Shown here: piece after piece, positions 1 to 51,296 of the stretch | How the letters are laid out: each line of letters opens with the position of its first letter | Position numbering within the stretch: the stretch's first letter is position 1 | Origin: a virus | Reading direction: 5' to 3' (one strand) | DNA: 52,958 nt | Virus genome (UHGV): UHGV-0074814 | The notes under the pieces: generated by a model | Databases searched by the model: none | The model's input: the letters and a program-made list of their open reading frames with translations, nothing else | What the model was told of the DNA's origin: nothing | Position numbers and translations under genes: made by a program

Positions 1-405
1 ATGGATCAGGTCGTTGTTTTTCAAAAGATGTTTGAGCAAGTGAGAAAAGAGCAAAACTTCTCCTGGTTTTATTCAGAATTAAAACATCACCGTATTGCAC
101 ATTACATTTATTATCTGGCTACGGATAACATCAGAATTATTACTCACGATGACACGGTTTTGTTATTAAGAGGAACCAGGAGCCTGTTAAAAGTTAGTAC
201 GATCAAGAACCCAACTAAAATAAAAGAGGCCGCATTGCTTCATATTCGCGGAAAATCTACATTTCGGGAATACTGTTCAACACTGGCAGGCGCAGGCGTT
301 TTCCGGTGGGTTACTGATGTTAATCATAACAAACGCAGTTACTACGCCATTGATAATACGCTTTTATATATTGAAGATGTAGAAAATAATAAACCATTAA
401 TATAA
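1..405 (+). CDS. hypothetical protein in left flank (134 aa); possibly DUF1398-like
   Basis: Complete ORF outside the icd repeat; no motif recognised with certainty; family guess from memory only. Confidence 0.3.
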   Translation: MDQVVVFQKMFEQVRKEQNFSWFYSELKHHRIAHYIYYLATDNIRIITHDDTVLLLRGTRSLLKVSTIKNPTKIKEAALLHIRGKSTFREYCSTLAGAGVFRWVTDVNHNKRSYYAIDNTLLYIEDVENNKPLI

Positions 406-620
406 CTAAAGTTGGGAGCTTAAGAAATGCTTCATAATTCAGTAAGGCATTAGCATAATGGAAATAAAAGTGCAGAGACCATCCCTATGGATGATTAATA
501 CTGTCTTTTTATTGCCCCCCATAATTAATCACCAGACCAATACGATCAAATTGATATTTGAAATGTGTTCACTTGACTTTTGATACGTTATTTTATAACG
601 GTTAACATATTTATAAAAAC

Positions 621-643
621 AACGGGCGTGTTATACGCCCGTT
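621..643 (-). terminator. rho-independent terminator hairpin downstream of icd 3' fragment
   Basis: 9-bp perfect stem aacgggcgt/acgcccgtt with 5-nt loop; on minus strand followed by GTTTTTAT; lies just past the icd stop. Confidence 0.45.
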
Positions 644-666
644 TCAATATTTAACACATATAGAGA

Positions 667-831
667 TTACATATTCTTGATGATCGCGTCACCAAACTCT
701 GAACATTTCAGCAGTTTAGCGCCCTCCATCAGACGTTCGAAGTCATAGGTTACGGTCTTGGCGTTGATTGCGCCTTCCATACCTTTAACAATCAGGTCAG
801 CCGCTTCAGTCCAACCCATATGGCGCAGCAT
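667..831 (-). pseudogene. icd: icd 3'-terminal fragment (copy 1, att-associated; last ~54 codons only)
   Basis: Minus-strand translation [54 protein letters not shown]-stop matches isocitrate dehydrogenase C-terminus; no upstream icd body. Confidence 0.8.
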
Positions 832-1368
832 TAGATTTAGAAAATTATTATATCCAATTGAATTAAAACAATTTTATACTTAACGAACATCTAAACTTGT
901 TTTTTTACCTTCACCATAACTCGCTGATTTTGTATAGTTTACGTAGCGTTTTGATAACCACTTTATGGCAAAATGGAGGTTCGCTTGAAAACTTCTGTTC
1001 TTATCCAGAAATTAATGGAAATTGACAAAACTGTACTATTCGATGCGGACGTAGTGACCGGTGAGGAATGGTGGCCAACCCCGATTTCTCGTGTTTATCA
1101 CAATCCGCCACATACTTATGTAGAATTTTAAACAGGTGAACAATCTCAAAATGAATCTGACGAGCTAAGTGTTTATAGCGAATTACAAATTTGTGCACAT
1201 CGAATGATGCAAATTAGAGATTTTGTGCAATCTAACGAGGGACTGAAACCTGAAAAAATTGTTTCGGAAATAAACATTCAAATTGAACGTATTAAAAAGT
1301 GATGGCTGAAGCAATTCTGAAACACTAATTCATATTCTATGTTATTCATACCAATGTGGATTTAACTC

Positions 1369-1432
1369 CCACCAACCCACCAACCCACCAACCCACCAAC
1401 CCACCAACCCACCAACCCACCAACCCACCAAC
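1369..1432. repeat. perfect tandem simple sequence repeat, 8 copies of CCACCAAC
   Basis: Counted directly: 8 identical contiguous 8-bp units from 1369 to 1432. Confidence 0.95.
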
Positions 1433-1689
1433 CATGATTGGGCGGCGCAAGAAACTAATATCAATTAAAACAGCAAGTTATCAGTCTAAACAGAACACCA
1501 ACGGGATGGAGGAGAGACAAAAAATATCCAATGAAACCGTAGCGCGTCAGCATTCAAAAGCGGGGTTTCTTATTTTTACTTCACCAGTAACAAATACACT
1601 GTATCATAACTACATAAAAATGATTGTTCTGACTCAGATGAATTTCTTACTCTTGTGGAATGTCACTTAATGTTATTTATAGGTAAACA

Positions 1690-3579
1690 ATGAAATCCGA
1701 AACGCTAACCATCCAGCAAATTTTCCAAAATCAACGACAATATCGTGTTCCATTCTATCAACGTGCCTACGTATGGACGCAACGAAACCAATGGTCAGCT
1801 TTGTTGGAGGATATCTTCGAAAAAGCACAGAGCCGACTTTCGGGAACAAAACCAACCCCTCATTTCCTCGGCGCGGTGGTGCTGGAACCTCAACTCAAAA
1901 ACAGCTTGTTAGGTGTAGATACCATACATATTATTGACGGCCAGCAACGTTTAACCACTCTTCAATATATTCTGGCATCCATTCGATTATCATTGCGTGC
2001 TACAGGCCTTTCTGAACTGGAAGGGTTAGTATTGACTTGCTTGAAAAATACAAACGAAGCAACGATGAGAAATAAAAAGGTAGAATGCTTCAAACTGTGG
2101 CCAACTTTTCGAGATCAAACTCATTTTATTCAAAGTCTTAATGTTGATAATATTGACGATCTCCGTAATGTATTTTCTGATAGCTTCACGCAACATGGTA
2201 CGTTACGTAAACATTTCAACCACCCGCCGTCACTAGAGGCATTATGGTTTTTTACTGAAGCCTTTATAAAATGGATTAAAATAGAAAACCACTCACCACA
2301 AGAAAATGCTGTAGCACTAATTGAGGCTGTCTTGACGGATCTGAAACTGGTAAGCATATTTCTCGAAGCTGAAGATGATGCCCAAATAATTTTTGAAACA
2401 TTAAATGGGCGAGGAGCGGAACTTCATGCAACGGATCTTATTCGCAACTATATCTTTATGTGCGCTGAGCATGAAAATATTAATGCTATTGAATTATATG
2501 AAAATGAGTGGAAGATCTTTGAAGATAAATACTGGTCGGAAAAGCAACGCCGTGGACGTATTAATAAACCACGCATGGAGTGGCTTGTACATGCGACATT
2601 GCAATCAGAAAGGCAGCGTGAAATTGATCTGTCTCGCCTTTACAATGAGTATCGTGATTATGTAAGTAAGGACTTGCCTTCACAACGAGCAGATCTGCAA
2701 GTAAAGCGCCTCAAACAATATGCATCACAATATAAAGAATTGGTTGGTGGTTTTGGCACAACCCCCATCTCACACTTTGGACATCGCATCGCAGCCTATG
2801 ATGTGACGACACTCTATCCGCTTGCTTTGTTCATTTCGATAGCTAACATCGCCGATGATGAGAAAGCAGCCATGTATAATGATCTTGTCTCCTACGTAGT
2901 ACGAAGATCCGTATGTGGCCTGACGCCAAAGAATTACAACAATGTATTTATGAATGTATTGCGACACTTGTCTAAAACGGAAATTTCCAGTGTTGAGTTA
3001 CGTAATATCCTCAATAGCTTAAATGGCGAAGCCTCACGTTGGCCTGGGGACTCAGAATTTCTCAACGCTTGCATCAATGCTCCACTTTATCCTGGCAGGC
3101 TCGACGCACCGAAAATGCGCTCAATGTTAACGGAACTTGAAAGAGAACTTTGTCGCCAAGTGAAGACAGAAAAGCCTGATGTTCCAAATCTTTCTAATCT
3201 CGATATCGATCATCTTATGCCTCAAAGTTGGTATTCCTGTTGGCCTCTCGAAAATGGTCATATGGTGACAAATTCAGATGCTACGGTAATGAACCAAATT
3301 GTTCTGTCTGGAACCGATCTTACCCCTGAACAGCTACTGGTAAGGAAACGGCAACAAGCGATAGCTACGTTGGGAAATCTAACTTTGCTTAACCTTAGCG
3401 TAAACCGTTCCGTTCAGAATGCTGTATTTCTGAAAAAACGTGATGCTCTCATCGTCCACACCAATCTACGACTGAACATACCACTTATACTTAAGGATAA
3501 ATGGGATGAGAGTGAAATACAGGAGCGAGGTAAAAAGTTGGGGGAAATTGCATTGAAAGTATGGCCAAAATACGATTAA
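1690..3579 (+). CDS. DUF262/DUF1524 family protein, GmrSD-like type IV (modification-dependent) restriction endonuclease candidate
   Basis: N-terminal FYQRAYVW and IIDGQQRLTT (DUF262/ParB-like DGQQR motif); C-terminal DIDHLMPQS His-Me/HNH-like motif (DUF1524); SD AGGTAA 5 nt before ATG. Confidence 0.6.
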   Translation: MKSETLTIQQIFQNQRQYRVPFYQRAYVWTQRNQWSALLEDIFEKAQSRLSGTKPTPHFLGAVVLEPQLKNSLLGVDTIHIIDGQQRLTTLQYILASIRLSLRATGLSELEGLVLTCLKNTNEATMRNKKVECFKLWPTFRDQTHFIQSLNVDNIDDLRNVFSDSFTQHGTLRKHFNHPPSLEALWFFTEAFIKWIKIENHSPQENAVALIEAVLTDLKLVSIFLEAEDDAQIIFETLNGRGAELHATDLIRNYIFMCAEHENINAIELYENEWKIFEDKYWSEKQRRGRINKPRMEWLVHATLQSERQREIDLSRLYNEYRDYVSKDLPSQRADLQVKRLKQYASQYKELVGGFGTTPISHFGHRIAAYDVTTLYPLALFISIANIADDEKAAMYNDLVSYVVRRSVCGLTPKNYNNVFMNVLRHLSKTEISSVELRNILNSLNGEASRWPGDSEFLNACINAPLYPGRLDAPKMRSMLTELERELCRQVKTEKPDVPNLSNLDIDHLMPQSWYSCWPLENGHMVTNSDATVMNQIVLSGTDLTPEQLLVRKRQQAIATLGNLTLLNLSVNRSVQNAVFLKKRDALIVHTNLRLNIPLILKDKWDESEIQERGKKLGEIALKVWPKYD

Positions 3580-3601
3580 TGCAATTAATAAAATGATTAT
3601 A

Positions 3602-3625
3602 GCGGCCTTACATTAGTAAGGCCGC
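3602..3625. terminator. hairpin between convergent DUF262 gene and pin remnant (possible bidirectional terminator)
   Basis: Perfect 10-bp stem gcggccttac/gtaaggccgc with 4-nt loop; A/T-rich flanks. Confidence 0.4.
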
Positions 3626-3804
3626 AACTCACTATTAAATCCTTTAATTTGCATCAAGAACAGCACTGTCAGCCCTAGGCTCTCGGACTTTGTACCGCTT
3701 ATCTTGTCTTCAAAAATCAGCTCGCATCCTGCACAGTTCAACGCATTACGTTGTAGATCGATTTTCTGGTCATTTGTTGATACGCAAACATAGCCAATAA
3801 GCAT
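3613..3804 (-). pseudogene. truncated serine invertase (Pin/Gin/Hin family), N-terminal ~45 residues conserved then divergent
   Basis: MLIGYVCVSTNDQKIDLQRNAL matches invertase catalytic N-terminus (Ser in VSTNDQ); ORF only 64 aa versus ~185-190 aa; SD GAGGGAG before ATG at 3804. Confidence 0.65.
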
Positions 3805-3830
3805 GGTAGCTCCCTCTGACAAAAGCAGGA

Positions 3831-4220
3831 ATGATGCCATTTTCTCGTTATTTCTGCATTTTCATAAACGTTGGTTTGGGAGAATTATCTCTGGCTGGCA
3901 CTGCATCGGGTGTCATTGGTCTGAATGGGTATGTAACGATTCCGTTAATTATTTCAGGTTCCCGGAGAACACTGATTATTCAGTGGGGGCAGGCGAGATT
4001 TGGTGGGTCTGGTGGTGAAGATGCCGGATATCTTAATGATTTTCCTTTTGCCTTTCCGTCAGCATGTTATGGAATGATAGTTAGTCATGTGGGGCATACA
4101 CCTTCAGGCGCAGGAATCCTGTCGGCTTCTGCAATTACATCAAATCAGTTCCGCGGTTTTTCAAGCATAGCGACTGCTGCAAATGCTGTATTAGGTCGTT
4201 ATATCGCTATAGGGGGTTAA
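3831..4220 (+). CDS. alternative tail-fibre C-terminal variable segment (silent orientation)
   Basis: Gly/Ser-rich fibre-like sequence inside the invertible segment, opposite strand to the expressed fibre gene; true reading frame entry is at the crossover site. Confidence 0.4.
   Translation: MMPFSRYFCIFINVGLGELSLAGTASGVIGLNGYVTIPLIISGSRRTLIIQWGQARFGGSGGEDAGYLNDFPFAFPSACYGMIVSHVGHTPSGAGILSASAITSNQFRGFSSIATAANAVLGRYIAIGG
3859..3884. repeat. invertase crossover site (gix/pix-like), left arm of invertible tail-fibre segment
   Basis: ttttcataaacgttggtttgggagaa; its reverse complement resembles site at 5389-5414 and the Mu gix core pattern AAACC-N-GTTT. Confidence 0.5.
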
Positions 4221-4221
4221 T

Positions 4222-4659
4222 ATGTTTTATAGTCCATCATTAAACATTTTTGTGAATCCTGCGCTTAAGGATGATTACATTAATGCAAATTCATGGCCAG
4301 ATGATGCTCTGGCTGTCAGTGATGATGTTTATAATGAATTTGCAATCAATACGCCCCCATATGACAAAATTCGTGTTGCAGGAAAAAATGGATTACCCAC
4401 ATGGGCACTAATACCTCCACCATCGCATGAAGAACTTATTCAACAGGCAGAATCAGAAAGGCAATTATTGCTTAATCAGGCCAACGAATACATGAACAGT
4501 AAACAATGGCCCGGTAAAGCCGCTATTGGTCGTCTGAAAGACGAGGAACTGGCACTATATAATTTGTGGCTGGATTACCTGGACGCACTGGAACTGGTGG
4601 ATACCTCCAGTGCTCCAGATATTGAATGGCCTACACCTCCGGTAACTCAGGCCAGCTAA
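4222..4659 (+). CDS. tail fibre assembly protein (alternative copy, silent orientation)
   Basis: C-terminus LVDTSSAPDIEWPTPPV matches conserved Tfa C-terminal motif VDTSTAPDIEWP. Confidence 0.6.
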   Translation: MFYSPSLNIFVNPALKDDYINANSWPDDALAVSDDVYNEFAINTPPYDKIRVAGKNGLPTWALIPPPSHEELIQQAESERQLLLNQANEYMNSKQWPGKAAIGRLKDEELALYNLWLDYLDALELVDTSSAPDIEWPTPPVTQAS

Positions 4660-5026
4660 TCTCAGGAGCCGTCGAAGTGTCGACGGCTTTTACTTCTTTT
4701 TTGTAGTCCATCCAGGCGGATAGTTTTTCTTTATCTGTACTGCTGATATCACCAAGCATTAATTCCACTCGCCAGTCAGCTGTGACATTATCGGCATGAG
4801 CAAGTAACTGCATTCGCTGATTTTCAGCACGTGCGACATAATCAATCGCCGGAGATTTCAGTACCGGTAAACCATTTTCATCTGACGTGATTAATTTACC
4901 CCCTTCCTGCTGTCCGGCAATTAATTCATTGTATAAGTCTGTACTTATCTCAACAATGTCAGCAGGCATGTCGCTGTTTATACCATCAAAGAAAAAACCA
5001 TTAGTCGATTTTGAGAAATAAATCAT
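4631..5026 (-). CDS. tail fibre assembly protein (expressed orientation)
   Basis: C-terminus AVDTSTAPEISWPELPEV matches Tfa motif; follows the tail fibre gene; start taken at the ATG (MIYFSK) at 5026 instead of the upstream non-ATG start of the ORF track. Confidence 0.6.
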   Translation of the reverse strand: MIYFSKSTNGFFFDGINSDMPADIVEISTDLYNELIAGQQEGGKLITSDENGLPVLKSPAIDYVARAENQRMQLLAHADNVTADWRVELMLGDISSTDKEKLSAWMDYKKEVKAVDTSTAPEISWPELPEV

Positions 5027-5034
5027 AGATATAC

Positions 5035-5691
5035 CTATACACCGATTGCTACCCAAAAACAGGACCTTTCATATTTGACAATTTCTCCCTGAGATATACC
5101 GCCAACAATTATATAGAACTGTGATTTGGTGATATCAGAACAGTTCGCAATGCCCATTGCAGATATACCCGCCACCGACGTTGTATGTGGTACAGCCAAC
5201 AGCGCAAGTGAACGACTTGGGAATGTTACCGGGTAAGTCACCGTATAGTTTGATGCTCCACTGACTATACCCCACTGAATAATCAGACCTGAAGGGAGTT
5301 TTTGAAAACCCGTTGATGAAAGTGAACTGGCAAACGCCGCCATATCCGGAATTTGGTTTTGCTCGTTACCCACATTTCGTTTTGCCGCTTCTCTCAAACC
5401 AAGGTTTTGAAGAGCCGTTTTCACCGTGCCGTCCGATTTGATATCGCCAAACGGATTTTTGCGACTTAACAGCAGCGCACGAAGCGCGGTAAGCAGCTGG
5501 TCATGCCGCCCCTTCTCCAGGCTGGCACCGGATGCCTCCACCACGCTGCAGAGCTCTTCCTGCAACATGTCAAAGTAGTCATCATCCAGATCGGTGGCAG
5601 GCGTGCCGGTCTGGGGGTTACCACGGGTAAAACCGTTCTTACCCGCGCCGAACTTATCCTTCTGCGCGGTTTTCGTGTCTATACGATGCAT
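5035..5691 (-). CDS. tail fibre protein (Mu S / e14 Stf-like) with constant N-terminus and invertible C-terminus
   Basis: Position after baseplate genes; crossover site at 5389-5414 lies inside the gene; followed by Tfa. Confidence 0.55.
5389..5414. repeat. invertase crossover site, right arm, inside tail fibre gene
   Basis: ttctctcaaaccaaggttttgaagag is an inverted near-copy of 3859-3884. Confidence 0.5.
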
Positions 5692-25423: not shown

Positions 25424-26599
25424 ATGGATATAACTTGTTTAGAATGTGGCAATGTTCTTGACGACCCAACTGTAGCTTGCGATAAATGCGGTGCCACGCC
25501 TCATGTTGTAGTGCTGGGCAAACAATCGTACTTTCCTATTGGTGCTGTAACAGCAAATCTTGAAAAAAATGATTCAAGAGCATTTGATTATCGATTAGGT
25601 GAAGTTTGGGATCTAAAAAATGAAGTCACATCTGAATTCATAACCAGAATTGAGAAAAAATTTAGCCGAAAAAACAAATTTCATAACTTCCTAGACTCAG
25701 ATCACAACCCTTCATCCATTCCTACGATCCTAAAAAAATACATTAATAAAAATAATGAATTCATTGATTTATCTAGAGCTATAATAGAGAAGCTTAAACA
25801 TAATGCTAATAACGAATCGAGAGTTGCCCAACTTCAGGGGGGGAGCGTTGTTTTCATCCACTATAAGTCTACCGAACCAGAGGATTTGGGGAAACTTCTA
25901 ATCGTAATGGTTGATAAACAAAGCGCCTATGACTTTGATTCGGATAAGTTGACCCCAACAAGATTAAATCCAATTAATACCGATGCCTTACGGCAGGCTG
26001 CGATGTTCGATTTAACTTTATTCGAAGCCAGTTATCCAGAAAACAAGGGTGACTCATATGTACATTTCTTGCAAGGTAAATCTAAAAGCGATTTTTTCAA
26101 AGACTCATTAGGTTGCCGACATGATTCGGACAATAAAAGAAGCATTCAGCAATTATTCAGTGCTATAGATATTTTTGCTAGTAAAAACTCACTCGGTCGT
26201 GTACTGCGTGATACTATTGACAATGAAGTTAAATCCTTACTGGAAAAAAAATCAAAAGATAAACACGGAAATAAGTCCGTTAAGATAGAGGATATTTCAA
26301 AAATAATTGACTCATGCCTGACTGATTCACACAAATGTAAGGGAACGTTTGTCGATTTTGTTAATCTTAATGGTTTCCAGATTGACCCTCAATTTGAACC
26401 AACTCCTAAAGCAGCTGAAAGCGCGCTTACAATTGAAGTGGCAGATAACGACAATAATTTTAAGTTGAAAATAATGCGTGGAGCTATTGGAGACGAAAAG
26501 TCAAATAAGCCTGTAATTCTCACTGACAACAAATGCGAAATTGTGATAAAATTGAGTCAGGCAAATTATGATGAACTCAAAAGATATAGAGACAGCTAA
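25424..26599 (+). CDS. zinc-ribbon protein with NdpA/YejK-like (NA37 nucleoid-associated) domain; candidate defence component A
   Basis: N-terminal CLECG-N10-CDKCG zinc ribbon; central GGSVVFIHY...YVHFLQGKSKSDFFKDSLGC resembles YejK GGIVLFCHY...[23 protein letters not shown]; AT-rich relative to flanks. Confidence 0.5.
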   Translation: MDITCLECGNVLDDPTVACDKCGATPHVVVLGKQSYFPIGAVTANLEKNDSRAFDYRLGEVWDLKNEVTSEFITRIEKKFSRKNKFHNFLDSDHNPSSIPTILKKYINKNNEFIDLSRAIIEKLKHNANNESRVAQLQGGSVVFIHYKSTEPEDLGKLLIVMVDKQSAYDFDSDKLTPTRLNPINTDALRQAAMFDLTLFEASYPENKGDSYVHFLQGKSKSDFFKDSLGCRHDSDNKRSIQQLFSAIDIFASKNSLGRVLRDTIDNEVKSLLEKKSKDKHGNKSVKIEDISKIIDSCLTDSHKCKGTFVDFVNLNGFQIDPQFEPTPKAAESALTIEVADNDNNFKLKIMRGAIGDEKSNKPVILTDNKCEIVIKLSQANYDELKRYRDS

Positions 26600-26601
26600 T
26601 A

Positions 26602-27816
26602 ATGACAATTGCTGATGACTTATCAAGATTAGCGCAGATTATTAACGGAGCCTCAAGCAGAGTTGAGGGCTACTACACTGTCATAAGTCTTGAAGAAAGC
26701 ATTGTTATTGTAAATAGTTCTGAAATAATTAGACTGTTACAATCTATAGGTTATAAAAAGGCAACAACCTGCATCGAAAATAATGAAATTTGGCTAGATC
26801 GCCAAGCTTCATCTTGGGATGATGCTATAATTTATGAGAATGTTGAGTCTTTTTGGTCTAGAGTAAACACCCAAAACGCTCTTCCGAAAAATTATATCAT
26901 CGGAACGCCGTTAATACTCCCTACTTCTAAGAATGAAAGCATCGAAAAAATCCATATTTTCTTTATGTGGAAAGATATCCTTTCATTAATTTCTGATCAT
27001 CATAACAGTGACTGCTCTGTCTTATTTTTCACCAATGAAGACAAAAGTTATACAGTCGAACTCACGCATTTTTTACAATATAGCGAGATTAATCGCTTAT
27101 CGAACTCGTCTCTTAAATATGAAATTATAAAGGAGCTTCTCGACACAATAAAAATCAATGATTTACACAAAAGCGAGCGCAAGCTCGTTATACGCTCAGC
27201 CATAAACGAAGTATTTAAAGCAAATGGTACGTTCAATTTCTTTGACTTGCTTAACTCTACTGAACTCGTCAGGAAAAAATATGATGAACTATATGAGATT
27301 TACACAAAGAGGTTTTCTGTAAATAAAATTCTTAACGAACTCGATGAGAAAAATCTTGAGTTCACGAGTAAAATTAACGAATTCATATCATCTAATCAGA
27401 CAAAAGCATTGACTATTCCCGGTGCATTAATAGCAGCTGGTGGCTTAGTGAAGGCTAATGAAACAACCGAAGCAATATTGATTATCGCAGGACTTTGGAT
27501 GATAAAAAAAGTCAATTACATTTCTATTGAGATATTCAATGAAACATTCGACAACTTACGTTCTCGAGTGGAGTCCGCTTTCGATAAGTATTTAAAGTTT
27601 GAAGAAAATAAAGAAATCAAAGATAATGCAGATAGTATTAAGAGTAGCATTACAGGTTTGATTGATAAAGCTAAAAAAAGGATGAGAACTGTTAAATATC
27701 TCGCATCAGCCATGTTTTATGGAGGCCTTATTTACGTTGGATATAAACAGTTCCCAGTCTTTTTTGAAAAATCGGCAGTAAATCTATTTTATTTTTTATG
27801 CCATACTATAAGCTAA
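26602..27816 (+). CDS. membrane protein with two C-terminal TM helices; candidate defence component B (effector?)
   Basis: Starts 3 nt after the stop of the upstream gene; hydrophobic segments ALTIPGALIAAGGLV...AILIIAGLWMI and YLASAMFYGGLIYVGY. Confidence 0.5.
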   Translation: MTIADDLSRLAQIINGASSRVEGYYTVISLEESIVIVNSSEIIRLLQSIGYKKATTCIENNEIWLDRQASSWDDAIIYENVESFWSRVNTQNALPKNYIIGTPLILPTSKNESIEKIHIFFMWKDILSLISDHHNSDCSVLFFTNEDKSYTVELTHFLQYSEINRLSNSSLKYEIIKELLDTIKINDLHKSERKLVIRSAINEVFKANGTFNFFDLLNSTELVRKKYDELYEIYTKRFSVNKILNELDEKNLEFTSKINEFISSNQTKALTIPGALIAAGGLVKANETTEAILIIAGLWMIKKVNYISIEIFNETFDNLRSRVESAFDKYLKFEENKEIKDNADSIKSSITGLIDKAKKRMRTVKYLASAMFYGGLIYVGYKQFPVFFEKSAVNLFYFLCHTIS

Positions 27817-37824: not shown

Positions 37825-38085
37825 ATGAGGTTATCAAAAATGCTTCAAATGCTGACACTTGAGGAATGGGCTGCGGAAAAATTTAGGAGTAATCCTCCAA
37901 GTGTGTCCACATTGCGTCGTTATGCTAAGCAGAATTTATTTTGTCCACCAGCAATGAAACAAGGTCGACTCTGGCGAGTACGTGAGGACGCAGAGTTAGT
38001 TGGGGAATTAGTTACTCCAGTAATCAAGAAAAGTGATTCTATTATTCTGCAAAGGATTTTAAGCAATGGCAGCCAGACCACGTAA
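37825..38085 (+). CDS. excisionase (lambda Xis-like); start may be one of two downstream ATGs
   Basis: MLTLEEW...STLRRYAKQNLFCPP resembles lambda Xis; overlaps integrase start. Confidence 0.6.
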   Translation: MRLSKMLQMLTLEEWAAEKFRSNPPSVSTLRRYAKQNLFCPPAMKQGRLWRVREDAELVGELVTPVIKKSDSIILQRILSNGSQTT

Positions 38086-39193
38086 AAATAATGTTTCAGT
38101 ACCTAACTTGTATCCGCTTTATAGTAGAAAAGTAAATAAAGTCTATTGGCGATATAAGCATCCAGTGACCGGGAAATTTCATTCGTTGGGCACAAATGAA
38201 GCTGAAGCTATTGCTATTGCCACTGAAGCTAACACTCGTCTGGCTGAGCAAAGAACCCGGCAGATTCTAGCTATCAGTGATAGGATCGCAACCAGCAAAG
38301 GAAAAGCGATCACAACGTCAACCTGGTTAGATCGCTATCAAGCGATCCAGGATGACAGGCTCAAAAGTGGTGATATAAGACTCAACACCTATAAGCAAAA
38401 AGCTAAACCAGTATCCTTGCTCAGAGAACGAGCAGGAATGAAGTTGATCTCATCCGTTGATGTTAGAGATATAGCACAATTGCTTGATGAGTATATTGCA
38501 GCTGGACAGCCTAGAATGGCCCAAGTCGTTAGGTCTGTATTGATCGATGTGTTTAAGGAAGCACAGCATTATGGCGAAGTTCCGCCAGGGTATAACCCTG
38601 CTCTTGCGACGAAGCAACCCAAAAGAAAAATTACCCGTCAACGCCTCAGCCTGGAAGAATGGCAAAAAATATTCGATATAGCAGACGCCAGTCATCGTTA
38701 CATGGGAAATGCCATGCTCCTAGCTTTGGTCACTGGGCAGCGTTTGGGAGATATATCCAAAATGAAATTTAGTGATATTTGGGAAGATCATCTTCACGTC
38801 ATTCAGGAAAAGACTGGAAGCAAAATCGCTATCCCTCTTTCTCTTCGCCTCAATGCGATTAACTGGAGTTTACGCGATGTAATAGCCCGCTGCCGTGACT
38901 ATGCAGTCAGCCCATACCTAGTGCATTTTTTCCGTTCAACTTCACAAGCAGAACGTGGGGCACAGGTTAAATCCAATACATTGACGATGAACTTTAGTAA
39001 AGCGAGAGATTTAGCAGGAATTGACTGGGGTGATGGCTCACCCGCAACATTCCATGAACAAAGATCGTTATCTGAACGCCTGTACAAGGAGCAAGGGATA
39101 GATACCAGAAAGCTACTTGGGCATAAAACACAACAACAAACCGATCGTTACCATGATGACCGAGGGAAAGGTTGGAGCAAAGTAGCTTTGTGA
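38066..39193 (+). CDS. tyrosine integrase (lambda Int family, e14 IntE-like)
   Basis: 375 aa; C-terminal catalytic region with R...HxxR...Y (HKTQQQTDRYHDD); adjacent to Xis and att-side icd repeat. Confidence 0.85.
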   Translation: MAARPRKNNVSVPNLYPLYSRKVNKVYWRYKHPVTGKFHSLGTNEAEAIAIATEANTRLAEQRTRQILAISDRIATSKGKAITTSTWLDRYQAIQDDRLKSGDIRLNTYKQKAKPVSLLRERAGMKLISSVDVRDIAQLLDEYIAAGQPRMAQVVRSVLIDVFKEAQHYGEVPPGYNPALATKQPKRKITRQRLSLEEWQKIFDIADASHRYMGNAMLLALVTGQRLGDISKMKFSDIWEDHLHVIQEKTGSKIAIPLSLRLNAINWSLRDVIARCRDYAVSPYLVHFFRSTSQAERGAQVKSNTLTMNFSKARDLAGIDWGDGSPATFHEQRSLSERLYKEQGIDTRKLLGHKTQQQTDRYHDDRGKGWSKVAL

Positions 39194-39403: not shown

Positions 39404-40519
39404 TTAAATTAAATCAAATAGCCCATGTTCATCTATAGCCTTTGAACTAATTAAGTTCGCGGCTTCTATGTCATTGTCACTTGCCTCAGAAATAAGGAAA
39501 AATGAATCAACATGATTTTGCAAAATAATTTCCTTATACTTCTTGAGCCATTGTAATTTACCTGTAGTGAACAATACTTTACGCGGTAGCAAAATACGGC
39601 TAAAAACTGATGGAAGATACTCACTTCTATTAAATGGAATAAAAGGGTCGCCTAAAGAAAGAATAGTTAGACGATTAAATTCACCGTGCGAATTCAATTT
39701 TTCAGCTGATTTGGCTATACCACTTGGTAAAAAAACACCTGTCTTGATACCGTTGCGTAAAGCAACAACAGCCATCATTTTATCAAAGGCAGTACCTCCA
39801 AATAATAAGGAATATCCTTTTTTAACAGAAAGATCAATAGTATCAAGAACAACTTGTTTTTCTATATCACTTGGTGACGTGCTCGAAATTATCGAAAGAT
39901 CAAAATCAGTAAATAACTGCCCAGTATAATAAAGATTTTTGCCGGTGAAAGTTGACAACTTTAAAGGAAACATTTTATCATCATGCTTAATTTCAGATAC
40001 ATTAAGATCTGTTAAGGATGGATAGTTAAAGTTTGGTGAGGCTTTTCCGTGTTTATTATTTTTTGATGCCTGCGGACTAAAAACTAGAATTTCATTTTTA
40101 TTATTACACAGGTAATCCTGTATCATTTTTTTTACAATATCCCAATCAAGACCACCGTGACCACAACCTAAAGCTGGCAGGGTGATTGTTTTTCCATGTT
40201 TATTATCCAAATATTTCGAGAGCCAATGCAGTCCTTTTTCGATATATTCGTACTTAGACTTATTTCTCCAATGATCCTTGGTGGGAAAGTTTATGATTTC
40301 TATTTCCTTACCATACGTATCATTACCTTTCCAAACAGCTGGTCTTCCTGGAGATATTTCTCCTTTTTTACACAGCAATACGTATTCATTATACATTTCA
40401 GGAAACTTATTCTTAAAAGCAAAAGCAACCCCTGCCCCCATTACACCAACACAATTAACTGTATTAATTCTAATGTCAGCAGCATAATCGAAAAAATCAC
40501 CATCAACATATCTAATCAT
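39404..40519 (-). CDS. macro-domain protein (DarG/TARG1-like) with C-terminal Rossmann-like domain; candidate antitoxin
   Basis: GDFFDYAADIRINTVNCVGVMGAGVAFAFKNKFPEMY and ALGCGHGGLDW macro motifs; start set at ATG with SD AAGGAGG (ORF track extends to 40645); AT-rich. Confidence 0.55.
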   Translation of the reverse strand: MIRYVDGDFFDYAADIRINTVNCVGVMGAGVAFAFKNKFPEMYNEYVLLCKKGEISPGRPAVWKGNDTYGKEIEIINFPTKDHWRNKSKYEYIEKGLHWLSKYLDNKHGKTITLPALGCGHGGLDWDIVKKMIQDYLCNNKNEILVFSPQASKNNKHGKASPNFNYPSLTDLNVSEIKHDDKMFPLKLSTFTGKNLYYTGQLFTDFDLSIISSTSPSDIEKQVVLDTIDLSVKKGYSLLFGGTAFDKMMAVVALRNGIKTGVFLPSGIAKSAEKLNSHGEFNRLTILSLGDPFIPFNRSEYLPSVFSRILLPRKVLFTTGKLQWLKKYKEIILQNHVDSFFLISEASDNDIEAANLISSKAIDEHGLFDLI

Positions 40520-40991
40520 AAAACCTCCTTTGGTCAGAGTATACATCCTTATTTCTGGCTCTTCAATTCTATTGTCAAAAACTTTTACAAAGTCTGCATC
40601 AGTAAAACTGATGGCGCATTTTAAAATTAAAATCAATATGTCCATATCAAACGTTATATTTGTTATTTTTTGTATTTATTATTCATATCCATCATGTGCT
40701 ATTAAATCGCCCAAAAGAACATAATAAATTATGTGCACCACTTTCTTCTTATTGAATTTTGGATTACATTACGATCTAAATTAGATCTTTTGCCAATATC
40801 ATAAACATATGCAGCAAACGTTGCAACAAGCTGTTCTCATTCTAACAGTTAGTAGAATATAAACTCTGTAATTAGCACACTGAATTCCCTTCATCTATGA
40901 GTTACAACATCCTTTAAGTGAATAGTATTGTTAGTTTAAATCTATTAATATCATTCATAAAACTATTTTATATAGTTAAAGTCATTATAAA

Positions 40992-41226: not shown

Positions 41227-42573
41227 TCATAAACTGTTCCCCTGCAATCTTTGGAGAACTTCATCCCGGAGATCATCGATCCCGTCAGAAACCTGAGCTA
41301 ACCAAACTTGACTTAATGAGCCAATATCAGCCTTACTTAGGGCTACTAACATATTGATATCTTCAGAAGATGTAACTATATCGAACAACTGATTTTTATT
41401 CCTCCCTTTAGCTACTATTTCCCCCAATAAATCATCATACGTAACTAACATCATTATTTTTCTAACTAGATCGGTTTGTATGACTGGCAGATCTTCTGTC
41501 AAAATTCGTTGTAGCATCGCAAGTGACTTCCTAGGATGCTCTCCATCTGCCTCATGCATGTAATTATTATTCCAACGTGTTTTAGGCCCTTTGCCTATAT
41601 CATGCAAATAAGCGGCCAACTCCAAAACTTCCTGATGAATAGAGTCTAATTGATAAAACTCTGGTGAATTAACTACAAGACTAGCCACTCGTCGACTATG
41701 AGAGCCAACATCTTCATTATGAGGCCCGTAGCTCGTCCCCAATCCATCGATATCTTCAAGCTCTTGGATGGAGGAGAAATTACCACGAATTGCACTTAGA
41801 GCATCACTAATACTTTGAAATTTTGGCCTCGTTTCTCGTTGAAATGAAGTTACATATTCAATAGCTTCATCAAAAAGCATTTTTAACACTACCGGTCCCG
41901 TGACTAAGGATGAGGACCAGTTTCCAGGTTGATAATAATAATGTTGAAAATCACCCTCAACAATATTTGGTGGAACAATACCTTTGTTCTGGAAAATACT
42001 CCTCACAATATCAGACATAGAACGATTCCATGTAATTATCTGATTTATTTCGCTTAAAGAGACATGATCTGGCAGCAAAAGTTCTGCCATCTTTTTATGC
42101 CTCTGAGTCTCGTCAGCATAACCCCATGCATTATTATCTATGGTAGCCCAATCTAATACATCAAGCTGGTCAGCTTGAGTATTACCAGAATAAAAGTTCG
42201 GTGGATTAACTGTATTTGCGGAAGCATCTGTAAAATATGACCCATTCCTTGTTTCGAGTGATAATATAGAAACTGAAAGATAGATAATAAATTGCTGATC
42301 TACATTTTTTTTATGAAGAACAGACAATTGCATGGGCGTTTTTTTTGCAAAATAAAAAGGAACATAATCATGAACACAACGACCATTCGTATTAGGCACC
42401 TGCATCACTGCCCTACGCCCCTGTATTCCTTCATCAGCAACATTCACATGTGATATACGACGTGCAATTTTCTGATTAGTCGAAAACAGCCCAGTTTCAA
42501 TTATTGATTCAAGATTATCTACTGACGTAAAGTGATATGCATTTCGGTGTCTATGGTGAACAGGAACTGTCAT
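41227..42573 (-). CDS. DarT-like (DUF4433) ADP-ribosyltransferase domain fused to HD phosphohydrolase domain; candidate toxin
   Basis: N-terminal YHFTSVDNLESIIETGL, HDYVPFYF and YFTDASA resemble DarT; C-terminal HSRRVASLVV...LAAYLHDIGK is an HD motif; SD GGGGGA; AT-rich. Confidence 0.5.
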   Translation of the reverse strand: MTVPVHHRHRNAYHFTSVDNLESIIETGLFSTNQKIARRISHVNVADEGIQGRRAVMQVPNTNGRCVHDYVPFYFAKKTPMQLSVLHKKNVDQQFIIYLSVSILSLETRNGSYFTDASANTVNPPNFYSGNTQADQLDVLDWATIDNNAWGYADETQRHKKMAELLLPDHVSLSEINQIITWNRSMSDIVRSIFQNKGIVPPNIVEGDFQHYYYQPGNWSSSLVTGPVVLKMLFDEAIEYVTSFQRETRPKFQSISDALSAIRGNFSSIQELEDIDGLGTSYGPHNEDVGSHSRRVASLVVNSPEFYQLDSIHQEVLELAAYLHDIGKGPKTRWNNNYMHEADGEHPRKSLAMLQRILTEDLPVIQTDLVRKIMMLVTYDDLLGEIVAKGRNKNQLFDIVTSSEDINMLVALSKADIGSLSQVWLAQVSDGIDDLRDEVLQRLQGNSL

Positions 42574-42928
42574 GTATCCCCCATGAAAAACTATAAAAAT
42601 TTAGGTAGTGTGCTTTATATTATTACAGTAATTGTAAATTACCGATATAGGATATCAACCTTCCTGTGATCTAGGTCACTCAGGATGAGCAACTTCCTAT
42701 TGATTAGGATTCAAAATGTTTGAAATGTGCGCTTACAGAACCACAGGCCACTTTGAGCGAAGAACAGACCTAAATATAAACGAGGGTTAATCAGCAATAA
42801 TTATAATAAACTGAGGTATGCCTAATTGGAACTTGACAATATAACTACCATCTCTCCCTAAACAACTAGGAGTTTTGATAACTTATTTTGATAAAATTTT
42901 GATAACCGTTAGCAGACTAACAAAAAAC

Positions 42929-42951
42929 AACGGGAGCGTTACACTCCCGTT
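42929..42951 (-). terminator. rho-independent terminator hairpin downstream of icd 3' copy 2
   Basis: Stem aacgggag/ctcccgtt, 7-nt loop; on minus strand followed by GTTTTTTGTT. Confidence 0.45.
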
Positions 42952-42974
42952 AATAGATTTAACAAATCACGATA

Positions 42975-43139
42975 TTACATATTCTTGATGATCGCATCAC
43001 CAAATTCTGAACATTTCAGCAGTTTAGCACCTTCCATCAGACGTTCGAAGTCATAGGTTACGGTCTTCGCGTTGATTGCGCCTTCCATACCTTTAACAAT
43101 CAGGTCTGCGGCTTCAGTCCAACCCATATGGCGCAGCAG
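42975..43139 (-). pseudogene. icd: icd 3'-terminal fragment (copy 2, attL-side)
   Basis: Translation [54 protein letters not shown]-stop; ~9 mismatches vs copy 1 over 165 bp. Confidence 0.8.
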
Positions 43140-43598
43140 TATATAAAAATTATGTATTCAACTCGCTGATATTTAATCATAAATATTATTTTCTTGTCTT
43201 TGTATTAGCCAAAATCAACTTTATTCAACCGTTTGATTTCATTGACGTTCGTTTTTATTTTGGGGAAAGATTTTCTCTACCATTTATATCAAAATTACAA
43301 GTCTACATTTTATTAACATCTCAATACATGTGTGGCCTTGCAAGCCATTGCGAGGCCTTATGTGTCTCAGTTTTGTCCCGCCTTGTATTACGACTTGCAT
43401 AGCCAATGAAGATAAACGTGACGACAAACAAAGCAGCTGTCTTCTTTTCTTTCACACTTTCCCCACTCAGCAGCATGCATACCTTCTACTATAACTGTAG
43501 TGAATGTCTATTATGAGCGAACTGCGGACATCGTGGAGACAACATGCTGCTGGGTGCGGATATCCCATGGCACGTCATATCGCTCGCCGTATTACTTG

Positions 43599-44369
43599 TT
43601 ATTTTTTTGAAACGAGAAGTTGATACAATTCCTTCAGGGATAAGGCTAATAACTCATTCTTCCTGATGAGATCTTTATCAGCGTCTATACCCTCTGCGCA
43701 TGATTCATTTAAATAGTTCAGTGTTTCCTGATCATCATCCAAGCATTCATAGCTGCCTGAATAAAATTCATCGCAACTTGCTTTGTTATTTTTGTCAATG
43801 TAACCAATGCATTGAATCACGCCTTTAACAACTTTAGCAGCAGAAAAAACAAAGTAACTGCAGTCATTTATATAGCGTTCAATATCAAAAATCATATAAA
43901 AATAGTGCATAGAGTGTTTTTCAATTTCAAACTCACTTGAAATCATAGCTATTTCACATTCAAGGTCTTTCAGACCATCTAACATTATGGAAAGTTTACA
44001 TTGTTTTTCTTGCACAGTTTCATACTTAAATGACTCTCTCCCCTTTGCCCTGACATTTATTCTTTCTTCAATTGCATAAATATAAGCAGGATATACACGC
44101 GACCACACTTGGTTTATTTTTAGGATTAACCGGCCTCTTTTCAGCCTTTCTTTTGTAGCTATAAATTCTGCATATAGCGCAGCATCCTCTTCGCACCATA
44201 CATCAACTTTTCGTTTATAACCCAACTTTAATTCTTTCCCTACGCATTCAGGAAACAAAGGATCAAAGTCCTTTAAGTATTCAAACTCACTTAGATAGAA
44301 TCCTGTCTCATAACGATTAAATAATTTCCTAAACTCTTTCCCACTTAAGGTTTTCATTGTATCAATCAC
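43599..44369 (-). CDS. hypothetical AT-rich cargo protein (256 aa)
   Basis: Clean ORF with strongly AT-biased codon usage; no motif recognised. Confidence 0.4.
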   Translation of the reverse strand: MIDTMKTLSGKEFRKLFNRYETGFYLSEFEYLKDFDPLFPECVGKELKLGYKRKVDVWCEEDAALYAEFIATKERLKRGRLILKINQVWSRVYPAYIYAIEERINVRAKGRESFKYETVQEKQCKLSIMLDGLKDLECEIAMISSEFEIEKHSMHYFYMIFDIERYINDCSYFVFSAAKVVKGVIQCIGYIDKNNKASCDEFYSGSYECLDDDQETLNYLNESCAEGIDADKDLIRKNELLALSLKELYQLLVSKK

Positions 44370-44963
44370 TCTGTTTTCATAAAAGCAAAGTCAACAAGAT
44401 AAAACAATAAAAACTCTTACACAACCAGCTGATGTTTTTAAAATAGAGGATAATATAAGACAAGCATAACCTCGTTCACTTCAATGCTACTCCTATCGTT
44501 CTTTTGCGTCACAGAGCGCCTGCCGGACAACTGCATCATAGACCAAACGGAACTGCTTCCGTCGATTAATCAGATGGCAGCGCATAAACACGCTCAACAA
44601 CCCGTTTGACTGCTTCAATTTTAAGCTCTTCGGAATAACGCTTACCGTGTAAGTCTCCCTGCAAAACGAGCTATCAACTTTTAAGGAGTCTCTGGCCCCC
44701 CTGCTTCCGCTCCTGGCACACAGCAGCCCTAGAGACAGTGGAGTAAAGTCATGGAGGCTCGGTGGGGGGAGGTGCAAATCCTCCCATACAAAAAATACGA
44801 AAATCAGTAACGGCTAGAAATCATTCAATACATGCACTCTCGAAATTGCATCAGCCAACCGCAAAACGTTATTTCAAAGCCTACTAGCTGCCTTACTTTT
44901 TTCCTCAATAACGCGTCGCCAGCAGGAAACAACCTAATCCCTGTTTTGGGCCTCAAAGCTGCT

Positions 44964-44982
44964 AATGATAATCATTTTCATT
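44964..44982 (+). promoter_or_regulatory. Fur box upstream of sitA
   Basis: AATGATAATCATTTTCATT matches Fur consensus GATAATGATAATCATTATC at about 15 of 19 positions. Confidence 0.5.
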
Positions 44983-45001
44983 TTGTATAGGCTGTGCTAT
45001 A

Positions 45002-45023
45002 AAACATAGCCGTTGCTATGTTT
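45002..45023 (+). promoter_or_regulatory. MntR operator palindrome upstream of sitA
   Basis: AAACATAGC-cgtt-GCTATGTTT perfect inverted repeat, the known MntR box pattern. Confidence 0.55.
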
Positions 45024-45055
45024 GTTCTAATTTTGCTCACTATAGGTACTAAATT

Positions 45056-45970
45056 ATGCACTCGATAAAAAAAGTAACCATGCTCTTGGGGGGGCTCGCA
45101 CTCACCTGCTCGATCGCATTTCAGGCAAGTGCAACTGAAAAATTCAAGGTCATTACAACATTTACCATCATCGCGGATATGGCCAAAAACGTGGCGGGAG
45201 ATGCTGCAGAAGTCTCATCCATAACCAAGCCTGGTGCAGAAATTCATGAGTATCAGCCTACCCCTGGCGATATTAAACGTGCGCAGGGGGCACAACTGAT
45301 TCTCGCCAATGGTATGAATCTGGAATTGTGGTTCCAACGCTTTTACCAGCATCTCAATGGGGTTCCAGAAGTAATTGTCTCTTCGGGTGTGACGCCTGTA
45401 GGGATCACCGAAGGACCCTATGAGGGCAAACCTAACCCCCATGCATGGATGTCGCCAGATAATGCTCTGATTTACGTCGATAATATTCGTGATGCGTTGA
45501 TAAAATACGATCCGGCAAATGCACAAACCTACCAACGCAATGCCGATACTTATAAAGCCAAGATTACCCAAACCCTTGCCCCCCTGCGTAAGCAGATTAC
45601 GGAACTCCCTGAGAATCAGCGATGGATGGTCACCAGTGAAGGGGCTTTTTCTTATCTCGCACGCGATTTGGGGCTAAAAGAGCTTTATCTGTGGCCGATT
45701 AATGCCGATCAACAAGGAACACCGCAGCAGGTACGTAAGGTTGTTGATATAGTTAAGAAAAATCATATCCCGGCAGTCTTTAGCGAGAGTACGATTTCCG
45801 ATAAACCAGCGCGTCAGGTTGCGCGTGAAACCGGCGCACACTACGGCGGTGTGCTCTATGTCGATTCCCTGAGCACAGAAAACGGCCCGGTACCGACGTA
45901 TATCGACCTTCTTAAGGTTACTACCAGTACGCTGGTACAGGGAATTAAAGCTGGGAAAAGGGAGAAATAA
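45056..45970 (+). CDS. sitA: Mn/Fe ABC transporter periplasmic binding protein SitA
   Basis: Signal peptide, 304 aa, first gene of four-gene ABC operon with Fur and MntR boxes. Confidence 0.8.
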
Positions 45971-46797
45971 TGATGCAATCTGCAGGCATTGTCGTTAATG
46001 ATGTTACTGTCACCTGGCGTAACGGGCACACAGCACTGCGCGATGCATCCTTCACAGTACCAAGTGGATCTATTGCCGCTCTGGTTGGGGTAAACGGTTC
46101 CGGAAAATCGACGTTGTTTAAAGCGATTATGGGATTTGTGCGTCTGACCAGCGGAAAGATATCTGTTCTGGGTATTCCCACGCGACAGGCGTTACAGAAA
46201 AACCTGGTTGCCTACGTCCCTCAGTCAGAAGATGTTGACTGGTCATTTCCTGTACTGGTGGAAGATGTGGTGATGATGGGCCGCTATGGGCATATGGGTA
46301 TGTTGCGTATCGCCAAAAAGAGGGATCGTCAAATTGTCACCGATGCGCTGGAACGTGTCGATATGGTGAATTTTCGCCATCGACAAATCGGCGAGCTTTC
46401 CGGTGGACAAAAGAAACGCGTCTTTCTGGCGAGAGCGATTGCACAGCAGGGTGATGTGATCCTGCTGGATGAACCTTTTACTGGCGTTGATGTGAAAACC
46501 GAAGCCAAAATCATCAGCCTGTTGAGGGAGTTACGCGCGGAAGGCAAAACGATGCTTGTCTCAACACACAATCTCGGATCCGTCACGACATTTTGCGATT
46601 ATACGGTCATGGTCAAAGGCACCGTCCTGGCAAGCGGGCCGACAGACACCACTTTTACAGCCGAGAACCTAGAGCTGGCTTTTAGCGGCGTACTGCGCCA
46701 TGTCACACTTAACGGCTCGGAAGAAAGCATTATTACTGACGATGAACGCCCTTTTGTGGCTCATCGACCGTCAGCGGTGCAGAGGGAAGAAAGATGA
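45970..46797 (+). CDS. sitB: Mn/Fe ABC transporter ATP-binding protein SitB
   Basis: Walker [10 protein letters not shown], signature LSGGQKKR, Walker B ILLDEP. Confidence 0.85.
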
Positions 46798-47651
46798 ACG
46801 TGCTACTGGAACCCTTCAGCTATGAATATATGCTCAATGCGATGTGGGTCTCGGCGATGGTCGGCGGTCTCTGCGCTTTCCTGTCATGCTATCTGATGCT
46901 AAAAGGCTGGTCGCTGATTGGCGATGCGTTGTCGCACTCTATTGTCCCGGGTGTTGCGGGGGCATATATGCTGGGGCTTCCGTTTTCTCTGGGAGCCTTC
47001 TTTTCCGGCGGACTGGCTGCGGGCAGCATGCTGTTTCTTAACCAACGCACCCGCTTAAAAGAAGATGCCATCATCGGTCTGATCTTCTCGTCCTTTTTTG
47101 GCCTGGGGCTGTTTATGGTGTCATTGAACCCGACATCTGTGAACATTCAGACCATCGTCCTGGGCAATATTCTGGCAATCGATCCGGCGGATATCCTGCA
47201 ACTCACTATCATTGGCATTCTCTCGATCATCGTGCTTTTTTTCAAATGGAAAGATCTTATGGTGACCTTTTTCGACGAGAATCACGCCCGTGCTATTGGA
47301 TTGCATCCGGGCAGATTAAAACTCCTCTTCTTCACCCTGCTGTCGGTTTCGACCGTTGCGGCGCTGCAAACGGTTGGTGCCTTTCTGGTGATCTGTCTGG
47401 TGGTGACTCCCGGTGCAACAGCATGGTTGTTAACCGATCGTTTTCCCCGCCTGCTCATGATTGCTGTAACTATTGGCAGTGTAACCAGTTTCCTCGGCGC
47501 GTGGGTCAGTTACTTTCTGGACGGCGCGACAGGTGGAATCATCGTGGTGGCGCAGACACTGCTGTTTCTTTTAGCATTTGTCTTTGCGCCCACCCATGGG
47601 CTTTTGGCAAATCGTCGGCGTGCGCATAAGGCGCTGGAGGATCGCTCATGA
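46794..47651 (+). CDS. sitC: Mn/Fe ABC transporter permease SitC
   Basis: 285 aa polytopic membrane protein, overlapping starts in operon. Confidence 0.8.
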
Positions 47652-48505
47652 TGGCATTATTACTGGAGCCACTGCAGTTCACCTTTATGAGTCACGCACT
47701 GCTGATTTCACTGGTAGTTTCCATACCCTGTGCGCTGCTGTCGGTCTTTCTGGTCCTGAAAGGTTGGGCACTGATGGGTGACGCGATGAGTCATGCGGTT
47801 TTTCCTGGCATCGTGCTTGCCTGGATTCTGGGGTTACCTTTGGCTACAGGGGCATTCGTCGCCGGAGTATTCTGCGCGGTGGCGACGGGATACCTGAAAG
47901 ACAACAGCCGAATCAAGCAAGATACAGTGATGGGGATTGTTTTTTCTGGCATGTTTGCCGCAGGTCTGATCTTGTATATTGCAGTCAAACCAGACGTACA
48001 TCTTGACCATATTCTTTTCGGCGACATGCTCGGGATAACCATCGGCGATATAATCCAGACGATGATTATTGCCGGGCTGGTTACACTTGTTATTAGCGTA
48101 AAATGGCGGGATTTTTTGCTGTTCAGCTTTGATTATCAACAGGCGCAGGTAAGCGGTTTGCATACGAGATGGCTGCATTATGGGCTGCTGTGCATGGTCT
48201 CTCTGACCATTGTGGCGACGCTGAAAGCGGTAGGTATCATTCTCTCCATTTCTCTGCTCATTGCGCCTGGCGCCATTGCGGTACTCCTGACACAACGCTT
48301 TCATATTGCGCTCCTACTGGCGACTGGCATATCGGTAATAGTGTCAATGACTGGTGTCTGGTTGTCCTTTTTTATCGACAGCGCACCAGCTCCGACGATT
48401 GTCGTCTTATTCGCGGTTTTGTTCATCATGACGTTTGCCGTTACCAGCATCAACGCACGCAAAAAGGGAAACTCCCATACACAGGATCTGTTATCACCCA
48501 ATTAG
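47648..48505 (+). CDS. sitD: Mn/Fe ABC transporter permease SitD
   Basis: 285 aa polytopic membrane protein paralogous to SitC. Confidence 0.8.
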   Translation: MMALLLEPLQFTFMSHALLISLVVSIPCALLSVFLVLKGWALMGDAMSHAVFPGIVLAWILGLPLATGAFVAGVFCAVATGYLKDNSRIKQDTVMGIVFSGMFAAGLILYIAVKPDVHLDHILFGDMLGITIGDIIQTMIIAGLVTLVISVKWRDFLLFSFDYQQAQVSGLHTRWLHYGLLCMVSLTIVATLKAVGIILSISLLIAPGAIAVLLTQRFHIALLLATGISVIVSMTGVWLSFFIDSAPAPTIVVLFAVLFIMTFAVTSINARKKGNSHTQDLLSPN

Positions 48506-48596
48506 CACAACATCCGAGGACAGCAACACCCGATACTTTTTCCTGGCTTCCAGCAACGGGGTTTCTTCCTCCGTTGCATATACAGCTCACCTTTTT

Positions 48597-48890: not shown

Positions 48891-48902
48891 TATTTCCTCC
48901 TT

Positions 48903-51244: not shown

Positions 51245-51296
51245 TCCACAAATAAAAAAGGCACCATTTCTGGTGCCCGAATTTGGGTTTTAAAAT

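Follow-up and report, generated by a model that had tools for sequence, protein, structure and literature searches.

The gene at positions 1690-3579 of UHGV virus genome UHGV-0074814, a 52,958-nucleotide stretch hereafter termed the window, very probably (about 95%) encodes GmrSD, the single-chain Type IV restriction endonuclease originally discovered in E. coli CT596, with its phenotype transferred from an identical protein. Judged by its sequence, the gene is the GmrSD family's founding member and more than 'GmrSD-like'. As such it is already known: biochemistry, mutagenesis, phage-plating data and a phage inhibitor have all been published. The present analysis ties the anonymous annotation 'DUF262 domain-containing protein' to the GmrSD prototype, and places this prototype within an icd-integrated, intact e14-type prophage, in the slot held by mcrA in K-12. 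Also, gmrSD and a dead invertase constitute one mobile cassette across prophages, with at least six integration sites, and about 5.5% of complete E. coli genomes contain it. The window is thus a neat case of defence cargo at a prophage end, useful for annotation and no discovery; the equivalence of the mcrA slot, the mobility of the cassette and the ssrA fossil with its repeat are incremental additions. The features of this prophage end are as follows.

615-848: icd-side attachment repeat (prophage end), with a second copy at 42923-43153 that is 88.9% identical
973-1302, plus strand: small pseudo-ORF of about 109 codons, read from the sequence, with an in-frame TAA at 1129-1131
1345-1433, plus strand: fossil ssrA (tmRNA) 3'-end attachment site, from alignment with the copy in strain 8GC and the real ssrA 3' end of UTI89
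1490-1689, plus strand: upstream region that co-moves with gmrSD; genomes missing the remainder of 842-1489 retain it at about 91% identity
1690-3579, plus strand: gmrSD, single-chain Type IV (modification-dependent) restriction endonuclease, equal to EcoCT596GmrSD
3602-3625: hairpin with a 10-bp perfect stem and a 4-nt loop (GCGGCCTTAC-ATTA-GTAAGGCCGC)
3613-3804 (ORF 3613-3840), minus strand: pin remnant, codons 1-49 at 3658-3804, then unrelated sequence to the stop
3861-5412: invertible tail-fibre segment, with inverted crossover sites at 3861-3884 and 5389-5412 and opposed tail-fibre-tip and tfa genes

The gmrSD frame is uninterrupted from its ATG start to its TAA stop and encodes 629 residues in 629 codons. 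Pfam searches detect GmrSD_N (PF03235) at residues 8-256 (E 1.7e-33; 116.8 bits, the cut-off being 33.2) and GmrSD_C (PF07510) at residues 451-619 (E 4.9e-20; well over the gathering score), each domain being matched along its entire length. The DGQQR motif occupies residues 83-87, within IIDGQQRLTT, and DHLMP occupies residues 507-511, with the catalytic residues D507, H508 and N522 all retained; the residues mutagenised in Eco94GmrSD (D507, H508, C517, N522, N528 and N535 in Eco94 numbering) are likewise all in place. The window protein is identical at 629 of 629 residues to the CT596GmrSD sequence given in the supplement (Fig. S1) of He et al. (2015; PMC4437046), and the exact sequence bears the UniRef name Q8KTH0_ECOLX. 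The sequence-only reading had proposed a GmrSD-like (DUF262/DUF1524) protein with a DGQQR-bearing ParB-like N-domain and a His-Me C-domain, to be checked by profile search; this was borne out, as Pfam detects both domains, the motifs are present, and the identity to the prototype EcoCT596GmrSD is 100%. The PADLOC Type IV model PDLC03655 (mREase_IV) spans residues 1-629 of 629 with 1523.7 bits, and this end-to-end match suggests that the model was built from the GmrSD protein itself. A search of NCBIfam gave zero matches for GmrSD, YcgX and the pin remnant. Nothing in the sequence was counted as evidence against the GmrSD reading.

Comparison with known systems places the window gene among three closely related GmrSD proteins. 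GmrS/GmrD of CT596 is described as the prototype (Bair and Black, 2007, as cited in PMC4619093), and EcoCT596GmrSD was resequenced as one gene (GenBank AF493796); it shares all 629 residues with the window protein, so that the two do not differ at the protein level, and its neighbours are alike, being tail-fibre-assembly and invertase genes (PMC4619093). Eco94GmrSD (ECSTEC94C_1402, WP_000834395; PMC4437046) has the same length, domains and D507/H508/N522 residues and is identical at 627 of 629 positions, the differences being R316H and Q611L (R316 and Q611 in the window protein, H and L in Eco94); its gene is also prophage-borne and lies directly after tail-fibre genes (He et al., 2015; PMC4437046). 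UTI89 GmrSD (UTI89_C2960, the 'UT enzyme') shows the same 629-residue architecture, truncated-pin junction and tail-fibre module, but has 44 differences (93% identical) and resides in a prophage at ssrA, whereas the window prophage is at icd.

The window protein might instead belong to a related DUF262/DUF1524 system, namely BREX-embedded BrxU or a phosphorothioate-sensing SspE/DndI nuclease. PADLOC SspE models do match the N-domain weakly (E 3e-15), and a phmmer search of PDB sequences at E<=0.01 returned only DndI (9JFL; N-domain residues 2-261, E 2.6e-7). These matches are, however, limited to the shared DUF262 domain, with the SspE match confined to about the N-terminal 100 residues, and no ssp or dnd genes are nearby. 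BrxU has the same DUF262 plus DUF1524 layout, is stimulated by nucleotides and restricts phages with modified cytosine (PMC8565348; PMC12373910), but it differs from GmrSD in its BREX island context, in its broader substrates and in being inhibited by Ip2 and not by Ip1, which inhibits GmrSD (PMC12373910). The phmmer search at the same threshold did not recover BrxU, which is very distant, and gmrSD in the window is surrounded by the icd repeat, pin remnant and phage tail-fibre genes, with no PADLOC BREX match among the ORFs examined. As the identity to prototype GmrSD is complete, a BrxU, SspE or DndI assignment is refuted, and its probability is close to nil. McrA of K-12 e14 is a single-gene modification-dependent nuclease of HNH type at the same position, between the invertase and the icd repeat, but it shares with GmrSD its position alone: McrA is not homologous to GmrSD, and targets 5mC (C5mCGG) whereas GmrSD targets hmC and glucosyl-hmC.

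For the GmrSD assignment, biochemistry and phage restriction come from the literature, whereas identity, motifs, synteny and distribution in E. coli were computed directly here. Eco94GmrSD cuts T4 (glucosyl-hmC) and T4gt (hmC) DNA with stimulation by ATP, and leaves phage lambda unrestricted (PMC4437046). It restricts T4 and T4gt just 15-20-fold, whereas the plating efficiency of T4 delta-ip1 under Eco94GmrSD is 10^-6 to 10^-7, and the CT596 gene on a single-copy plasmid restricts T4 delta-ip1 about 10^6-fold (PMC4437046). The Eco94GmrSD mutants D507A, H508A and N522A are all inactive (PMC4437046). The inhibitor, IPI*/Ip1, is co-injected by T4 and is specific for the CT596-type enzyme, and CT596 GmrSD is specifically inhibited by Ip1 (PMC12373910). 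Because these data concern proteins identical to, or two residues different from, the window protein, the plating and catalytic-mutant experiments put forward by the sequence-only reading have already been performed. Close GmrSD relatives can differ in behaviour: the purified UTI89 enzyme was inactive in vitro, and the UTI89 protein is described as insensitive to IPI* and as not restricting T4 (PMC4437046). The window protein is the CT596 allele and not the UTI89 allele.

According to published work on these proteins, the NTP-dependent function is supplied by the N-terminal ParB-like DUF262 domain with its DGQQR motif, and DNA is cut by the C-terminal DUF1524 His-Me finger through D507, H508 and N522. 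GmrSD spares unmodified DNA and cleaves DNA containing 5-hydroxymethylcytosine or glucosyl-hmC, and from this it follows that incoming T-even phage genomes are destroyed; T4 counters by co-injection of IPI* (Ip1). In the window, gmrSD is lysogenic-conversion cargo of an e14-family myoviral prophage of about 42 kb at icd. It fills the stretch from the tail-fibre invertase to the attachment site, where K-12 e14 carries mcrA and relatives carry other nuclease or restriction-modification genes.

The gmrSD lineage is present in 304 of 5426 complete E. coli genomes. By nucleotide identity to the window gene, 56 carriers are at >=99% (CT596/Eco94 type), 29 at 95-99% and 218 at 90-95% (UTI89 type). 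A megablast search against 50,697 phage records gave zero matches and the gene was not found on E. coli plasmids, so that gmrSD is known solely from chromosomal prophages.

The gene might be a silent or decaying relic that contributes no defence in the window prophage. Its neighbours are degraded, as pin is truncated and the ORF at 973-1302 has an in-frame stop. Also, the promoter-like site in the upstream region (1580-1607; TTCACC-16-TATCAT) matches just 9 of 12 consensus positions, and such sites are no commoner in a scan of the region than in shuffled controls; assignment of this site as the gmrSD promoter is putative, and transcription of gmrSD from its own promoter in the window lysogen is likewise what we infer. 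An AGG ribosome-binding site precedes the ATG. On the other hand, the frame is unbroken over its 629 codons, and its product equals an enzyme that is active both in its native prophage and when cloned in single copy; moreover, gmrSD is intact in 299 of the 304 carriers, and dN/dS values of 0.11-0.18 between alleles indicate purifying selection. A relic is therefore highly improbable, and an intact, functional GmrSD is the preferred reading.

Between the CT596 and UTI89 types, gmrSD codons 1-190 (1690-2260) differ by 17% with a dS of 0.75 and a dN/dS of 0.12, whereas the sequence beyond codon 190 differs by 2-3% with a dS of about 0.06; 29 of the 44 amino acid substitutions fall within residues 1-186. 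Positive selection was considered as the cause of this clustering in residues 1-190 and was rejected, as a dN/dS of 0.12 with a dS of 0.75 indicates that a much older allele has recombined in, and not that adaptive change was rapid. The CT596 and UTI89 alleles are thus mosaics produced by recombination of an old N-terminal segment. The mosaic split corresponds to the reported difference in sensitivity to IPI*, the divergent region lying in that half of the protein whose changed sequence reportedly renders the UTI89 enzyme immune to IPI* (PMC4437046).

The prophage that carries gmrSD belongs to the e14 family integrated at icd, as indicated by duplication of the icd 3' end, an IntE-type integrase and colinearity with e14. 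The icd-side repeat at 615-848 is 94.7% identical to K-12 icdC plus flank and contains a 54-codon icd 3' fragment (667-831, minus strand) with a Pfam Iso_dh match; the prophage between the two repeat copies is about 42 kb. The integrase (38066-39193) has a lambda-type arm-binding domain and a catalytic domain, and its DNA is 88% identical to intE/xisE. K-12 e14 and the window prophage share eight colinear internal segments, ranging from intE to the 5' end of pin, that are 81-99% identical, seven of them at 84-99%. The following e14 segments were compared with the window prophage by nucleotide identity.

intE/xisE segment: 88%
ymfI-J segment: 95%
ymfL-M segment: 99%
aaaE segment: 97%
jayE-ymfQ-stfP segment: 96%
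pin 5' end segment: 90%
icdC segment: 95%

This piecewise but ordered match makes e14 look like a deleted derivative of such a phage. G+C content is about 0.37-0.45 over 1-5000 and reaches 0.55-0.60 past about 5400, among the tail and baseplate genes; the low value over 1-5000 fits foreign cargo.

The boundaries of homology with K-12 define the slot that gmrSD occupies. Homology at the icd repeat extends over 616-841 and stops at 841, 8 bases inside the annotated end of e14, and it restarts at 3669, which corresponds to nucleotide 136 (codon 45) of pinE, and extends over 3669-3884. These breakpoints indicate that 842-3668 of the window replaces exactly the 3' three-quarters of pinE, mcrA and its flank, in agreement with the earlier suggestion that gmrSD lies between the pin remnant and the icd repeat in the position of mcrA in e14. 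Within 842-3668, no DNA homology to the K-12 mcrA region was found, and the Pfam domains differ as well. Of the 5426 complete E. coli genomes, 329 have the mcrA arrangement.

It is a familiar idea that a prophage end may hold, after its tail-fibre/invertase block, genes that are non-essential and often defensive. For the e14 pin-att interval in particular, a literature search for its description as a defence hotspot returned nothing specific. The sequence-only reading had taken this end to be an exchangeable slot for defence cargo, and this gains support from relatives that carry other cargo there. In strain 8GC, an icd-integrated relative, the att-proximal segment of about 540 bp is 90% identical to the window, and past it lie genes for a type II restriction endonuclease and a C5-methyltransferase (cytosine), together with a LEM-3-like GIY-YIG gene. 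In relatives with full-length pinE, the genes past pin are a GIY-YIG gene with an AraC regulator, or one hypothetical gene.

At the other side of gmrSD, the slot is bounded by the pin remnant. The remnant matches Pfam Resolvase and, by BLASTP, is identical to K-12 PinE at 41 of 49 positions (84%), residues 1-49 aligning on residues 1-49; it carries an R8C substitution beside the catalytic serine. In e14, the carrier of mcrA, the invertase pinE is full length (184 residues), whereas in every gmrSD carrier examined pin is annotated as a truncated recombinase. The hairpin at 3602-3625 starts 23 nt past the gmrSD stop, is kept in AMSHJX01 and UTI89, and is probably a terminator where the pin remnant joins on. 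From the gmrSD stop through the hairpin into the pin remnant, the window shares essentially the same sequence with AMSHJX01 (prophage at icd) and UTI89 (prophage at ssrA). About 301 of the 5426 complete E. coli genomes, essentially all the gmrSD carriers, cover the full length of a 401-bp probe of this junction. The unit of gmrSD and truncated pin was found at icd, at ssrA, in a vat-linked island, at tRNA-Pro near yejM, and in the rclC and paoD neighbourhoods. The same junction in about 301 genomes and at six or more sites argues that the truncation was one old event and not local to the window locus. The earlier proposal that arrival of gmrSD deleted the 3' two-thirds of pin is thus plausible as to the deletion, 49 of 184 codons being left, but does not stand as an event at this locus.

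One replacement event that combined insertion of gmrSD with deletion of pin is the simplest account of the junction. Truncation of pin and arrival of gmrSD could alternatively have been separate events, with gmrSD inserted beside an already dead pin or with a later deletion of the pin 3' part. No intermediate between gmrSD-less and truncated-pin states was found in either direction, the junction includes a spacer of about 75 bp with the hairpin that matches neither gmrSD nor pin, and IS-mediated deletions are known at the gmrSD-pin junction, as in a lambdoid prophage of strain NDM5, where one junction copy is eroded by IS903B; all of these are compatible with two steps. Yet exactly the same junction is present in all carriers examined (301 genomes with the junction compared with 304 with gmrSD), and, secondary IS deletion aside, neither this gmrSD lineage beside an intact pin nor the pin breakpoint without gmrSD was seen. 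Two separate events are thus a possible but less likely history, and a single replacement is preferred. After this replacement, gmrSD, the dead pin and the invertible tail-fibre segment form a cassette that has since moved among prophages with different integrases.

The two crossover sites of the invertible segment match at 20 of 24 positions, as counted by hand after a pattern search and direct reading; an inverted-repeat finder with a seed of 12 missed them. The orientation of the segment in the window is opposite to that in AMSHJX01 (L001 8171-9475), and pin is dead in both, which suggests inversion by an invertase from elsewhere or recombination between variants.

The att-side flank of gmrSD has features of its own. 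The pseudo-ORF at 973-1302 lies in an att-proximal segment common to other icd prophages, and an intact 113-residue version (WP_224271434.1) adjoins the icd repeat in strain 8GC; a Pfam search of the ORF gave nothing significant. About 530 bp inward of the icd end of the prophage lies the fossil ssrA site, for which the compared intervals were L005 6520-6690 and L002 2190-2400. In the 8GC copy GGGTTCAACTCCCGCCAGCTCCACCA is retained, and the next 130 or so nt match the sequence past the real UTI89 ssrA. An Rfam search over 832-1700 gave no tmRNA-like match, the relic being recognised solely by alignment with 8GC and UTI89 ssrA. In the window this stretch has expanded to a perfect (CCCACCAA)x8.2 repeat, detected by Tandem Repeats Finder at 1368-1433. 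Matched intervals in other strains are 800 to 840 bp long compared with 848 bp in the window, in steps that are multiples of 8 bp, so that the copy number of the 8-bp repeat varies among strains. Placement of this repeat inside the gmrSD promoter was considered and rejected, as the repeat falls outside the segment of about 200 bp that co-moves with the gene. A broader and speculative model, which we consider improbable, is that the pin-to-att interval of e14/SfII-like prophages is a bounded recombination slot whose att-side edge is the fossil ssrA site, a remnant of a previous switch of integration module. At this edge, the octanucleotide repeat, hypervariable in this lineage and lying upstream of the gmrSD promoter-like site by about 150 bp, could affect how strongly gmrSD is expressed, in a phase-like way that varies with the strain, or it could be the crossover point for cargo exchange.

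Several further observations concern the remainder of the window. Between ymgL and the icd fragment, at 616-661, iraM and ymgK (about 818 bp in K-12 and AMSHJX01) are missing, and a 46-bp stretch there matches both flanks of the iraM/ymgK segment in K-12, consistent with a deletion between direct repeats. At the opposite end of the prophage, a DarTG-like pair (39404-40645 and 41227-42573, both minus strand), composed of DarT fused to an HD domain and a macro-domain DarG, is located between the integrase and the second icd repeat, at the position of lit/ymfD/ymfE in e14; with this pair, both prophage ends carry defence cargo. An intact icd gene is absent from the window. Past the second icd 3' fragment (42975-43127) come a hypothetical gene, then sitABCD (45056-48505), then tail-fibre and J genes of lambdoid type (49178-52943), and the presence of sitABCD and lambdoid genes past the second icd copy (42923-52958) indicates a second prophage in tandem at icd. 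Lastly, a plus-strand ORF pair at 25424-27816 lies amid minus-strand phage genes and encodes a 391-residue protein of the NA37 nucleoid-associated family, followed by a 404-residue protein with neither a Pfam nor a PADLOC match; this pair may be a further cargo insertion.
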